A DNA stretch of 64,000 bases, taken from NCBI GenBank assembly GCA_050739575.1, contig JBOIBN010000003.1, positions 608-64,607 on the forward strand, written 5' to 3'. This DNA comes from Gammaproteobacteria bacterium (GTDB taxonomy: Bacteria > Pseudomonadota > Gammaproteobacteria > JAKDMP01). This document shows, one piece after another, positions 25,549 through 34,073 of this stretch. Position numbers and translations under genes: made by a program. The notes beneath the pieces are model-generated. The model made no database searches and was not told where the DNA came from. It worked only from the letters and a program-made list of their open reading frames with translations. Every line of letters begins with the position of its first letter. The stretch's first letter is position 1.

Positions 25549-26343
25549 TCAGTTTGAGCCGCCGCCGTTCTGGTTCGGACCGATCATTTGTTCGTAGTTC
25601 GGTAACTGGTTGGGGTTGTAGTTCGGCAGGTTCTTGCGGACGGTTTCGTCGCGGTTCTGGAAGTAGGCGTTGCGCATGAAGGCGTAGGGATCGTAGGCCT
25701 GCTCCAGCAATTGATCGAGATTCAGGAATTGCGCGCGGAGCTGAATTGCACCGATGGCGTAGATAAGGTTGCGCGTCCGTGGTTTCCAGCCGGTCCAGAA
25801 GAAGGCCGAGCCGAAGTGATCCACGTAGAGGCCGAAAGCGTCGCGGACATCGCTCGGCCCGAGCAGCGGGATTTGCAGGTACGGCCCGCTCGGCACGCCC
25901 CAGCGCGCAAGCGTGATGCCGAAGTCCTCGCTGTGCGGCGGCATGCCCCAGTCCGAGGCGGGATCGAAGAAACCCGCGAAACCCACCGTCGAGTTGGCGA
26001 AAAAGCGTCCGGTATCGCGCACCGCATCCAGCGGCTTGAGCTGCAGCAGATCGTTGATGACGGTGACCGGCAGGCCGAGATTGCTGAAGAAATTGCCGAT
26101 GCCGGTTTGCACCGGTTTCGGAGTGATCTTCACATAACCCTTGGCCGCAGGTTTGAGCACGGCCGAATCCACCAGATTATTGAAACGGTACACCTCTCGG
26201 TTGGCGGGCGCCAGCGGGTCGCGCTTCTGGGGCGGCACGTTGCCAGGGTTGCCCGGCTTCGTCACACATCCGCAAAGTAGCGTTGTGAAAACCAGCGCGC
26301 AGACGGCGACGGGCCGGAGCAAGCGGTTGTGCCCACGGTTCAT
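25549..26343 (-). CDS. mlaA: outer-membrane lipoprotein MlaA (VacJ)
   Basis: Lipobox LLCGC and VacJ-family similarity (REVYRFNN, GLYVDHFGSAFFWTG). Start ATG 26341-26343 lies 1 nt after the upstream sulfotransferase stop codon (26338-26340). Confidence 0.85.
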   Translation of the reverse strand: MNRGHNRLLRPVAVCALVFTTLLCGCVTKPGNPGNVPPQKRDPLAPANREVYRFNNLVDSAVLKPAAKGYVKITPKPVQTGIGNFFSNLGLPVTVINDLLQLKPLDAVRDTGRFFANSTVGFAGFFDPASDWGMPPHSEDFGITLARWGVPSGPYLQIPLLGPSDVRDAFGLYVDHFGSAFFWTGWKPRTRNLIYAIGAIQLRAQFLNLDQLLEQAYDPYAFMRNAYFQNRDETVRKNLPNYNPNQLPNYEQMIGPNQNGGGSN

Positions 26344-32237: not shown

Positions 32238-34073
32238 TCAAGATACCGCTTCGTCGTCCCGGACGGGCGAATGTTTCTCCCCCGACGGATTCAACGGTGC
32301 CGCCGCCGAGGGCTGCTGCAGCGCCTTGCGCAGGGGCTCGAGATGACGTTCGAAGTGGCGCCAGCGCCCCTGTGCGCTGCGATATACGGGTTGGCGCGCC
32401 TGCCACAGGCTCGCGGTCCGGATCAGGAGGCGTTCCCGATAGCGTTCGAGGCAGTCCTCCTCCCACGGCAAGTCTAGCGCCACCATCAGGTCGCGCAGTG
32501 CCTGCTCGGGCTCCGCAACCAGCCGTTCGTAGCGTACCTCGATAAGACGTTTGGCGCCCAAAGTTCTGCGCCAATGCACCATGAGCGCTTCGTAGAAGAG
32601 ATAGAACTCGCCCAGCGTGGCCAGCTCGTTGCTGAAGGAATGGCCCTGGCCGAAGGCGGTGGCGAAGCAGGAAAAGCAATTATCAAGAGGGTCGCGGCGC
32701 ACATGCACGATGGCGGCGCGGGGAAAGCACAGGTGCAGCAGTGCGACCAGCATGAAATTGGTGGGCATCTTGTCGGTAATGCGCGCGCCGTCCGGGGCGA
32801 GTGTCTCGAGGCCGCGCCGCCACTCCCCGGCGATGTCGGCGAGTTGCGCGTCGCTGCGCGACGCCAGCCATTCCCCAACCCGCTCCTTGGCATTCACGCG
32901 TCCAGCGCGACGGCGCAGCAAATCGTGCACCCAGTGCATCTCGCCGCCGGCATGGACCGTGCTGTGCGCCGCGAGCAGGCTTTCGGTCAGGGTGGTGCCC
33001 GAGCGCGGCATGCCGAGCACGAAGATCGGCCGCGTCGTAGAATCGCCGATGCGCCCGGCGCGGGCGGCGAAGTCCTTGCCGAGATACGCTATGATGCCGC
33101 GGAAATAGTCAATCTGACCGTCCCGGTCGTAGGGCAGCTCGTGCGCCCGACGGACGTTGGCTTCGGCGTAGGCGGTGAAGGCGCCGTCGTAGTCGCCGGC
33201 CGCTTCCCGGCACATGCCGAGCGCAAAGTAAAGCGGCGAGGCCGCGGGATCGGCCCCCGCCTCGTGCGTCGCCGCCACCAGTCCGGACATCAAATCGGAG
33301 GCCGCGCGATCGCGGCACCCCAGCACCCGATTCAGCCACGCCTCGTAGCAGCTCCGATCGGCTTCCAGAGCCCGCCGTGCCAAGCGTTCGCCCTCGGCAA
33401 AATTGCCCCGCTGCCCGGCGAGGGAACCGAGTGCGCAAATCGCCGAGGCACAGCGCGGATCGAGCGCGAGCGCGTGACGATAACTGGATTCGGCCTGATC
33501 GGCGAGGCCCAGGCGCTCCTCGATCTCGGCGCGGTGCAACCAGGGTTCGGGATCACGGGGAGCCAGGTTCGCGGCCCGGGCGTAGGCCGCGAGCGCGCAC
33601 TCCCAGTCCGCAGCCTGCTCGTGACAGCTGCCGCTCAGCGTCCACAGTTGGGCCGCATCGGGATAGCGCGCGAGCAGGTGTGCAAAGGGCTCGCGCAGTT
33701 CGTCGGCCCGATCCTGTGCGATGCGGATCAGGGCGAGCTGAATCCATGCGGGCGGGTGCATGGGGGCGAGCGCGAGGACATGCGCGAGCTGCCGTTCCGC
33801 GGCCTCGGGCTCTCCGGTCTCACGCAGCATGCGGGCGAGATTGGTCAGGACGGAGATCTCGTCGGGCGCGAGCCGCGCGGCGCGTTCCATGAAGCGGCGT
33901 GCCGTGCGAGCGTGCCCCCGCTCATAGATCAGGAGCGCATAAAAGTGCCAGGCCTCGACGCAGCGCGGATCGGCGCGCAGGATACGACAGTAGCCGGCGG
34001 CCGCCGGGCGCCAGCGTCCGGCGCGCTGCCAGGCCAGCAGCCGCTGCAGATTCTCCCCGGCCCCGGCCCTCAC
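32238..34073 (-). CDS. TPR-repeat / sulfotransferase fusion protein (subfamily A, copy 2)
   Basis: TPR N-half. 5'-PSB motif IFVLGMPRSGTTLTES. Its stop lies 3 nt before the next gene's start. Confidence 0.8.
   Translation of the reverse strand: MRAGAGENLQRLLAWQRAGRWRPAAAGYCRILRADPRCVEAWHFYALLIYERGHARTARRFMERAARLAPDEISVLTNLARMLRETGEPEAAERQLAHVLALAPMHPPAWIQLALIRIAQDRADELREPFAHLLARYPDAAQLWTLSGSCHEQAADWECALAAYARAANLAPRDPEPWLHRAEIEERLGLADQAESSYRHALALDPRCASAICALGSLAGQRGNFAEGERLARRALEADRSCYEAWLNRVLGCRDRAASDLMSGLVAATHEAGADPAASPLYFALGMCREAAGDYDGAFTAYAEANVRRAHELPYDRDGQIDYFRGIIAYLGKDFAARAGRIGDSTTRPIFVLGMPRSGTTLTESLLAAHSTVHAGGEMHWVHDLLRRRAGRVNAKERVGEWLASRSDAQLADIAGEWRRGLETLAPDGARITDKMPTNFMLVALLHLCFPRAAIVHVRRDPLDNCFSCFATAFGQGHSFSNELATLGEFYLFYEALMVHWRRTLGAKRLIEVRYERLVAEPEQALRDLMVALDLPWEEDCLERYRERLLIRTASLWQARQPVYRSAQGRWRHFERHLEPLRKALQQPSAAAPLNPSGEKHSPVRDDEAVS

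Follow-up and report, generated by a model that had tools for sequence, protein, structure and literature searches.

The question raised by this locus is why a bacterium should keep four sulfotransferase genes side by side in one operon, and whether these genes are recent copies of one another or old and distinct enzymes. They lie at positions 26340-34073 of a 64,000-nucleotide stretch of the gammaproteobacterial contig JBOIBN010000003.1 (assembly GCA_050739575.1), which was analysed over its full length and is called here the window (G+C about 63%). Four paralogs on the minus strand, each combining tetratricopeptide repeats (TPR) with a sulfotransferase domain, had been recognised in the initial annotation, and four intact open reading frames (ORFs) of this kind were indeed found. 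In each of them an N-terminal TPR region precedes a Sulfotransfer_3 domain, and the gene order is A-B-(SseB-like ORF)-B-A, where A and B denote two subfamilies. The repeats occupied roughly residues 15-315 of all four large proteins. In the Pfam search, Sulfotransfer_3 (PF13469) was detected in all four with E values of 3e-39 to 8e-42 (136-145 bits, for a gathering cut-off of 27), in addition to TPR families. The same genes, with equal lengths and in the same order, were present in the metagenome-assembled genome (MAG) GCA_974167825.1 (contig CDBNZP010000102.1). As argued below, these genes probably encode four non-redundant protein or peptide O-sulfotransferases that depend on 3'-phosphoadenosine 5'-phosphosulfate (PAPS) and resemble the tyrosylprotein sulfotransferases (TPSTs), with a client tied functionally to a TonB-dependent receptor.

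The four copies (S1 to S4, numbered by position) were compared with each other by blastp and at the DNA level. S1 and S4, the A copies, were 40% identical over 584 residues, and their DNA aligned in short patches only. S2 and S3, the B copies, were 58.6% identical over 567 residues. Both values exceeded the 30-32% protein identity observed between A and B copies, for which DNA similarity was undetectable beyond one short match. Identity was consistently lower in the TPR region than in the catalytic domain (34% versus 49% for A/A, 54% versus 63% for B/B and 20-24% versus 32-35% for A/B). The motifs on which the two groups had originally been defined were all present, namely GMPRSGTTL and GRWRHFE.HL.PL in copies 1 and 4, and SLPRSGSTL and LAPVAA.LAD.IAAYEAELA in copies 2 and 3. 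By these alignments, the array was shown to comprise two old subfamilies, A (copies 1 and 4) and B (copies 2 and 3).

The DNA of the B copies was 65-67% identical overall (67% over 1732 nt), with 72-75% in the first 250 nt or so and 78-82% in the last 200-300 nt. The best gap-free repeat between them covered 300 nt at 78% identity (28209-28508 versus 30488-30787) and corresponded to the 3' ends of the genes, in agreement with the 75-80% estimated there earlier. The description of their 60 N-terminal residues as near-identical was overstated, as 41 of the first 60 aligned residues were identical. Neither long identical DNA tracts between copies nor inverted DNA symmetry was found in the array. 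Since all the genes share one strand, the mirrored A-B-x-B-A arrangement pointed out initially holds for gene order only and does not extend to the DNA.

Relatives of the locus were retrieved by homologue search and exact-protein look-ups. All were metagenome assemblies, designated here L002 (GCA_050738295.1), L084 (ERZ23510489), L087 and L091 (ERZ27259738, 3.2 kb). Orthogroups were assigned from the identity matrix and a neighbour-joining tree of 16 sulfotransferases. S4 was 66-71% identical to the receptor-proximal sulfotransferase of L002, L084 and L087 (orthogroup A1), and S2 was 67-78% identical to the gene that follows SseB in the same three assemblies (B1). S1 was 55-56% identical to its A2 orthologues L002_4 and L084_4, against 40% to S4. 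Over its whole length, S3 was 55-56% identical to the B2 orthologues and 58% identical to S2. The L091 pieces were 86-90% identical to S4, S3 and the SseB-like protein (89% for the partial A1 gene versus S4), and 79% identical to the start of S2. The genomes of the relatives are fairly distant (MlaA 68-72% identical; the receptor of L084 77% identical to that of the window). At this step, the identities and the tree showed four orthogroups (A1 = S4, B1 = S2, B2 = S3, A2 = S1) which, by this measure, pre-date the split from several other uncultured gammaproteobacteria.

Gene order was also compared. In the window, it reads receptor / A1(S4)-B(S3)-SseB-B1(S2)-A2(S1)-mlaA. In L002 it is receptor / A1-SseB-B1-B2-A2-mlaA, in L084, where the full locus is available, A1-SseB-B1-B2-A2-A3, in L087 A1-SseB-B1-B2'-mlaA, and in L091, with its partial A1 gene, A1-S3-like-SseB-B1. 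Across the relatives, the number of sulfotransferase genes is thus three, four or five, and their order varies too. The more distant relatives carry A-x-B-B-A(-A), and the A-B-x-B-A order of the window is common only to the sister assembly L091. The symmetry of the array is therefore lineage-specific. The small ORF noted between the B copies belongs to the SseB family (PF07179) and is conserved in the relatives, where its orthologues are 56-63% identical with a ratio of nonsynonymous to synonymous substitution rates (dN/dS) of 0.17-0.27. In all genomes in which it was seen (the window, L002, L084, L087 and L091), its stop shares 4 nt with the start of the B1 gene, and in L084 and L087 the A1 stop additionally overlaps the SseB start. 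Owing to these overlaps, A1-SseB-B1 looks like a translationally coupled core. A word-indexed homologue search with the SseB-like protein gave only 5 relatives, and an AlphaFold2 (AF2) model calculated from a 5-sequence alignment was unusable (pLDDT 46).

When each copy was compared with its orthologues, dN/dS was 0.13-0.30 (S1, 0.13-0.21; S2, 0.13-0.18; S4, about 0.2) with a synonymous divergence (dS) of about 1 or more. From these values, all four copies are old and kept under purifying selection and, by that measure, functional. Between paralogues, dS was about 1.2 for the B pair and 1.7 for the A pair, the proportion of synonymous differences (pS) being about 0.6, near saturation.

The ancestry of S3 was followed along its length by sliding windows and a nearest-neighbour bootstrap (1000 replicates) on the protein alignment. 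For the catalytic core (residues 301-500), the nearest sequences were the B2 orthologues in 998 of 1000 replicates, with 66-68% identity versus 56% to S2. For residues 1-85, the nearest sequence was S2 of the same genome (966 of 1000 replicates; 67% identity versus 27-29% to B2), and residues 505-570 were likewise nearest to S2 (664 of 1000; 80% identity). Furthermore, the B2 genes of L002, L084 and L087 have in common a longer N-terminal TPR region (L002_3 versus L087_3: 34%, E 1e-21). This extension is missing from S3, whose N-terminus is 64% identical to that of S2. At the level of the protein alignment, copy 3 is a B2-type catalytic core with B1-type, copy 2-like, N- and C-terminal ends.

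Such segment-wise incongruence supports an old recombination or gene conversion. The simplest reading is that an exchange with copy 2 put B1-type ends on a B2 gene, in association with the relocation of this gene to a position upstream of the SseB-like ORF. Segment-wise pS was 0.5-0.68 throughout, and marginally lower (0.48) for the C-terminal segment of S2 and S3. Because synonymous sites are saturated, the exchange would not be recent. The proposal that the array is a substrate for recombination or gene conversion was thus supported, on a long time scale, by the mosaic copy 3 and by the variable copy number and gene order in the relatives. The array offers a clear case of old tandem paralogues that stay distinct while still swapping gene ends. 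Regarding the gene model of copy 3, an ORF extending to 32234 (590 aa) does exist, as first annotated, but the true start is most likely the inner ATG at 32189, giving 575 aa, because the public annotation and the orthologues begin there. An exact-protein look-up of the 590-aa form gave no match.

The initial annotation had favoured a relatively recent segmental duplication. On this account, the B pair, and perhaps the A pair, would have been duplicated in tandem or as a segment in this very genome, and the copies would be largely redundant and subject to concerted evolution. The DNA identity of the B copies, recognisable along their full length and higher at both ends, and the affinity of residues 1-85 of S3 for S2 are what such an origin would leave behind. 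However, S2 is closer to B1 orthologues elsewhere (67-78%) than to S3 (58%), the catalytic core of S3 groups with the B2 orthologues, and S1 and S4, only 40% identical, each have closer orthologues in other genomes. In addition, the dS of 1.2 between S2 and S3 equals that between genomes whose MlaA proteins are about 70% identical, the best repeat is limited to 300 nt at 78% in an array devoid of long identical tracts, and the same four orthogroups are found in L002 and L084. With an orthogroup of its own for each copy, a high dS and a low DNA identity, a recent segmental duplication is unsupported and we regard it as very improbable; the relatives at hand contradict it.

In order to define the enzyme type, a profile of the catalytic domains was compared with the sequences of the PDB. 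Human TPST1/2 and a tick TPST gave the best matches, which were full-length (E 3e-24 to 3e-22). The sulfotransferases CurM and OLS ranked next (1e-13 to 1e-15), and the remaining ones gave hardly any match. In a 10-sequence alignment, PRSG(T/S)TL, GGE, DK and TAS..Q were invariant. Within the 5'-phosphosulfate loop, of the general form P-K/R-x-G-T/S-T, the P, R, S, G, T and L residues are invariant, and the loop aligns to the PRSGTTL sequence of TPST1, which TPST1/TPST2 (PDB 5wrj, 3ap1) and the tick enzyme (8w5z) have in common. In the alignment to TPST1, three invariant positions, namely the PRSG arginine, the GGE glutamate and the DK lysine, fall on their TPST1 counterparts, although in the TPSTs the Glu stands in CGEE and the Lys in NK. 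They are equivalent to Arg78, Glu99 and Lys158 of TPST2, which have been reported to be catalytic (PMC10951654). The A copies keep the TPST 3'-phosphate motif (RD...S) as RRDxxDxxxS, as in TPST1, whereas the B copies have Gly in place of the Ser. This Ser is kept in most distant family members, and the B type is still under strong purifying selection. By inspection, distant family members carry the Glu (as G-T-x-E-L) and RRHP motifs.

The TPR part matched consensus TPR proteins, and its best natural PDB match was the TPR region of O-GlcNAc transferase (OGT; E 4e-11). By eye, no N-terminus among the four proteins looked like a signal peptide; the enzymes are thus expected to work in the cytoplasm, the site of PAPS synthesis. 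Most likely, judging from these features, they are cytoplasmic, PAPS-dependent O-sulfotransferases in which a TPR arm of about 300 residues is joined to a TPST-type catalytic domain. A search of NCBIfam gave no equivalog for any protein of the locus, and the PADLOC anti-phage models gave generic TPR and 2-oxoglutarate (2OG) domain matches only.

Each of the known systems shares part of this design. The sulfation of tyrosines in proteins has been studied extensively in animals and plants. The TPSTs are type II membrane proteins of the Golgi lumen without TPR, unlike the predicted cytoplasmic proteins with a TPR arm described here. OGT follows the same layout, a TPR arm at the N-terminus and then a catalytic domain that modifies proteins, but the latter is a GT-B glycosyltransferase unrelated to sulfotransferases, so that the resemblance is architectural and does not imply membership of the OGT family. 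In bacteria, RaxST of Xanthomonas oryzae, which is not known to have a TPR arm, was the only tyrosine-sulfating system found in the literature searched. According to the accessible portions of two reports, RaxST is cytoplasmic and PAPS-dependent and sulfates a tyrosine of the ribosomal peptide RaxX before export; the raxX-raxSTAB cluster of X. oryzae pv. oryzae (about 5 kb) places the RaxX precursor gene beside raxST, together with raxA and raxB, RaxB being the protease/transporter of a type I secretion system (PMC4892823, PMC6637879). RaxST is also reported, in the available part of the first of these, to sulfate the outer-membrane protein Omp1X (PMC4892823). Unlike that system, as judged from its descriptions, the locus examined here has no adjacent precursor gene and no raxA/raxB-type exporter in its genes or intergenic regions.

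To place the array in a wider context, one genome per species was scanned, and at least 598 TPR-sulfotransferase loci were confirmed. The best 80 came from Woeseiaceae, Steroidobacteraceae, Lysobacterales, Cellvibrionales, Sphingomonadales and others. Receptors were surveyed in 79 distant loci (L004-L082) among these best 80 of at least 598, using profiles built from the window proteins and covering about 10 kb of flank on each side. A receptor ORF was found in 57 of the 79 loci and lay no more than 300 bp from a sulfotransferase ORF in 41 of them. All 57 receptors were within 2.3 kb of the sulfotransferase, and none was located at 3-10 kb. Among the 49 pairs within 1 kb, the receptor was immediately downstream on the same strand in 33. 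From this proximity, the TPR-sulfotransferase and the TonB-dependent receptor appear to form a widespread module, of which the window holds an elaborate version. In the literature searched for sulfotransferases with TonB-dependent receptors or TPR, no study of the pairing was found except that of Iyer, Abhiman, de Souza and Aravind (2010; PMC2938197).

Four of the distant loci (L020, L028, L032 and L072) also carry Oxy_5 or AspH-type oxygenases. Two others, L011 from an uncultured Gammaproteobacteria MAG and L019 from a Rhodanobacteraceae MAG, comprise arrays of five or six such genes on both strands, with no TonB-dependent receptor in the DNA covered; multi-copy arrays are thus not unique to the clade of the window. 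Two further protein families recur beside TPR-sulfotransferases. One, of about 300 aa and without Pfam or NCBIfam match, was seen in 21 loci at a median distance of 176 bp (e.g. L071:8189-9145 (+)). The other, an S9 prolyl-oligopeptidase-type peptidase with PD40 propeller repeats, was directly adjacent to the TPR-sulfotransferase in 10 loci (e.g. L025:5483-7618 (+)).

In the window, a locus of about 17 kb (26340-43325), of which the array forms one arm, is bounded by mlaA on one side and by tRNA-Leu and guaBA on the other (Table 1). Within the limits of its contig, L084 has kept all three parts, namely the oxygenase arm, the receptor and the sulfotransferase array. In the intergenic region between S4 and the receptor gene, an alignment of four genomes showed that the receptor-proximal 165 nt or so (approximately 34290-34467) is conserved and the sulfotransferase-proximal half is not. 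The conserved stretch contains a promoter-like TTGCAA-17 nt-TAGGAT, an inverted repeat (TGTGG-N8-CCACA) and a conserved leader, and it may be an operator or a regulatory leader. Rfam gave nothing but two tRNAs in the window, hence no family at this stretch. A strong terminator-like hairpin follows the receptor gene (37503-37530) and is kept in L084; apart from this terminator, a promoter and terminator scan gave sites no commoner than in shuffled sequence.

Table 1. Features of the sulfotransferase-receptor-oxygenase locus and its boundaries, with positions in the window.
Feature	Position	Strand	Length (aa)	Remarks
mlaA	25549-26343	-		PF04333 (E 3e-71); housekeeping; proximal boundary of the locus
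Copy 1 (S1)	26340-28130	-	596	A-type TPR-sulfotransferase, orthogroup A2; PF13469 (E 8e-42) and TPR families
Copy 2 (S2)	28177-29910	-	577	B-type TPR-sulfotransferase, orthogroup B1; GTG start
SseB-family small protein	29907-30371	-	154	the x of the array; PF07179 (E 2.4e-6)
Copy 3 (S3)	30462-32189	-	575	B-type TPR-sulfotransferase, orthogroup B2; mosaic; most likely start
Copy 4 (S4)	32238-34073	-	611	A-type TPR-sulfotransferase, orthogroup A1; first gene of the operon, divergent from the receptor gene
Divergent intergenic region	34074-34467			between the S4 and receptor genes
TonB-dependent receptor	34468-37476	+	1002	Plug and TonB_dep_Rec_b-barrel; divergent from the sulfotransferase operon
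2OG-Fe(II) oxygenase	37718-38836	-	372	2OG-FeII_Oxy_3 (E 1e-10), prolyl-hydroxylase-type; orthologue in L084
2OG-FeII_Oxy_5 / TIGR02466-family oxygenase	38841-39545	-	234	L084 orthologue 73% identical
Small 2OG-FeII_Oxy_3 oxygenase	39682-40200	+	172	weak FlmC-family match (108 bits, cut-off 240)
TPR and Asp/Asn beta-hydroxylase-family oxygenase (TPR-AspH)	40160-41548	-	462	PF05118 (E 2e-48) and TPR
Fifth protein with a predicted sulfotransferase fold	41605-42663	-	352	no Pfam or NCBIfam match
Second 2OG-FeII_Oxy_5 / TIGR02466-family oxygenase	42672-43325	-	217	distal end of the locus
tRNA-Leu(CAA)	43487-43573	-		directly beyond the last oxygenase gene, followed by guaB and guaA

The oxygenase arm also encodes a 352-aa protein for which the AF2 model was of high quality (pLDDT 91.8). 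Its top Foldseek matches in the PDB were all sulfotransferases (E 4.5e-6 to 1e-3, TM 0.4-0.54), which suggests that this protein adopts a sulfotransferase fold. At the position expected for the PAPS loop, it has HTAFCCSTL, and its distant homologues carry weak Sulfotransfer_1/3 matches. Homologues were observed in Hyphomonadaceae and in Erythrobacter and Porphyrobacter MAGs. The genes of the small 2OG oxygenase and of TPR-AspH converge, and their 3' ends overlap by 41 nt (40160-40200). At the distal boundary, tRNA-Leu(CAA) falls within the mechanical ORF of guaB (43425-45134), so that the true guaB start must be located further downstream.

At the other boundary, the start of mlaA and the stop of copy 1 have 4 nt in common (26340-26343), which suggests co-translation with the array, mlaA being probably co-transcribed; mlaFEDCB adjoin on the other strand (22115-25412 (+)). 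This neighbourhood raises the question of envelope lipid or glycolipid tailoring. OlsC and LpxO are acyl-chain hydroxylases of ornithine lipid and lipid A, and the AspH-family oxygenase could be an enzyme of this kind, the sulfotransferases acting, alongside the Mla genes, on the hydroxylated outer-membrane lipids or glycans. The AspH domain does match OlsC (E 3.5e-28) and LpxO (E 7e-11), but far below the cut-offs (98 bits versus 450 and 42 versus 500, respectively). Similarly, the catalytic domains of the array match CurM and OLS, whose substrates are beta-hydroxyacyl thioesters, and weakly NoeE, but TPST1/2 match them much better than CurM. Moreover, TPR arms typically bind proteins or peptides, and they are present in the sulfotransferases and in the AspH-like enzyme alike. 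Finally, the adjacency of mlaA is confined to close relatives (in L002 and L087, 64 and 174 nt, respectively, separate it from the array), while receptor adjacency recurs across distant taxa. Lipid tailoring is accordingly held to be quite doubtful.

The composition of the locus recalls the 2OG-oxygenase neighbourhoods delineated by Iyer et al. (2010), which, in the accessible portion of that paper, include sulfotransferases and, for some of them, TonB-like receptors (PMC2938197). Both have oxygenases of the Syn9-gp52-like (2OG-FeII_Oxy_5 / TIGR02466) and classical 2OG types, a beta-hydroxylase, sulfotransferases and a TonB-like receptor. As far as the available text goes, hydroxylation followed by sulfation of peptide or protein substrates was proposed for oxygenase-sulfotransferase operons that co-encode collagen-like or tail-collar proteins, and siderophore-like products were predicted for the neighbourhoods with TonB receptors (PMC2938197). 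Unlike the locus studied here, the published neighbourhoods feature, in the same portion of the paper, tryptophan halogenases, SapC, non-ribosomal peptide synthetases (NRPS), PAPS synthetases or the collagen-like and tail-collar substrates. Among the Pfam-annotated genes of the window, no collagen-like or tail-collar substrate gene was found. Conversely, a tandem TPR-sulfotransferase array, an SseB-like gene and a degenerate fifth sulfotransferase-fold protein go unmentioned in that portion (PMC2938197). In the literature searched, no experimental characterisation of such systems was found. Thus, the multi-paralogue array and its locus are a fresh variant of neighbourhoods predicted in 2010, and their proteins belong to a large, annotated but uncharacterised family.

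Following that prediction, the product could be a small secreted metabolite, siderophore-like or signalling and derived from amino acids, which would be hydroxylated, sulfated and re-imported by the TonB-dependent receptor. The receptor is indeed the only transport component and is tightly linked to the array. However, no exporter, no scaffold-building enzyme (NRPS, polyketide synthase (PKS), NRPS-independent siderophore (NIS) synthetase or ATP-grasp), no tryptophan halogenase and no SapC was present among the Pfam-annotated genes of the 64-kb window. Where the module consists of its usual two genes, no enzyme other than the sulfotransferase stands beside the receptor, and TPR arms are unusual for enzymes that tailor small molecules. 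We consider a small metabolite an unlikely product. A cluster for a lasso peptide or another ribosomally synthesised and post-translationally modified peptide (RiPP) was also considered, by reference to a Pontixanthobacter cluster in which a sulfotransferase and an Asp beta-hydroxylase stand beside lasso genes. It was rejected, as the lasso B2 protein, PqqD and an asparagine synthase-related protein are absent here.

The explanation that we favour, and hold to be probable, is that of four non-redundant, TPST-like sulfotransferases of a protein or peptide functionally tied to the receptor. By analogy with OGT, the TPR arm would recruit an unfolded protein or peptide client and feed it to the active site, where the conserved Arg (PRSG loop), Glu (GGE) and Lys (DK) would transfer the sulfate from PAPS to a hydroxyl. 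The acceptor would be a tyrosine, or a hydroxyl introduced by the five co-encoded oxygenases. The client would be either the receptor precursor itself or a peptide encoded elsewhere and taken up by the receptor. The TPR arm is where the paralogues differ most, so the four most likely act on distinct sites or distinct clients, which would make them non-redundant. The early suggestion that four sulfotransferases imply multiple sites or multiple acceptors is thus plausible, given the purifying selection acting on each copy and a divergence much greater in the TPR arms than in the catalytic domains. From the whole of these data, we infer a protein or peptide acceptor, a division of labour among the paralogues and a cooperation with the oxygenases.

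Several observations weigh against this explanation. The similarity to the TPSTs falls short of proving specificity for tyrosine or for proteins; significant matches to the catalytic domains also came from the CurM-type sulfotransferases, for which acyl-ACP is the substrate, and weak ones from the nodulation sulfotransferase NoeE. The B copies have RRHPLATALG, in which Gly replaces the Ser of the 3'-phosphate-binding motif. PAPS-synthesis genes are absent from the 64-kb window, and searches of the locus and the window revealed neither a conserved small ORF or precursor peptide nor an exporter, an NRPS or RiPP machinery. In particular, no small ORF was conserved in the intergenic regions between S4 and the receptor (a four-genome comparison) or between the receptor and the oxygenases. 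Concerning the history of the array, the trees are neighbour-joining only, and the recombination of S3 rests on protein-level patterns, for which the saturated sites fix neither the timing nor the breakpoints.

A more specific and, in our opinion, rather unlikely possibility is that the TPR-sulfotransferases serve specifically to modify TonB-dependent receptors of the outer membrane, or the peptide ligands that these import, and that TPR-AspH and the other oxygenases share this role. The receptor precursor would then be sulfated, and here also hydroxylated, at several sites in the cytoplasm before export, with one site for each paralogue. If this were true, the sulfotransferase-receptor pair would mark an unrecognised class of post-translationally tuned bacterial surface receptors, by analogy with the tyrosine sulfation of animal chemokine receptors.

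As a duplication alone, the array is ordinary, and it is of more interest as an entry to bacterial TPST-like enzymes and to their unexplained pairing with receptors. The combination of a TPST-like catalytic domain with a TPR arm defines a large, uncharacterised bacterial family with at least 598 loci in species-representative genomes. The clade of the window maintains this family as three to five tandem paralogues beside a TonB-dependent receptor and protein-hydroxylase-type oxygenases. If the acceptor is a protein or a peptide, the locus would be a bacterial counterpart of the hydroxylation and sulfation by which eukaryotes tailor extracellular proteins, and a tractable system for the role of sulfation at the Gram-negative surface.

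Elsewhere in the window, a further 2OG-FeII_Oxy_3/4 oxygenase of 331 aa (62172-63167 (-)) lies about 19 kb from the locus, beside a YceI-like protein and downstream of a pstSCAB-like phosphate-transport cluster (57899-61824). The second tRNA, tRNA-Ser(CGA), is located at 48925-49014 (+). In addition, three tandem genes for T2SSE-family ATPases of 364, 462 and 389 aa (mechanical ORFs) were observed at 11565-15064 (-); they may be PilT/PilU-like paralogues, and hence another tandem set in the window.

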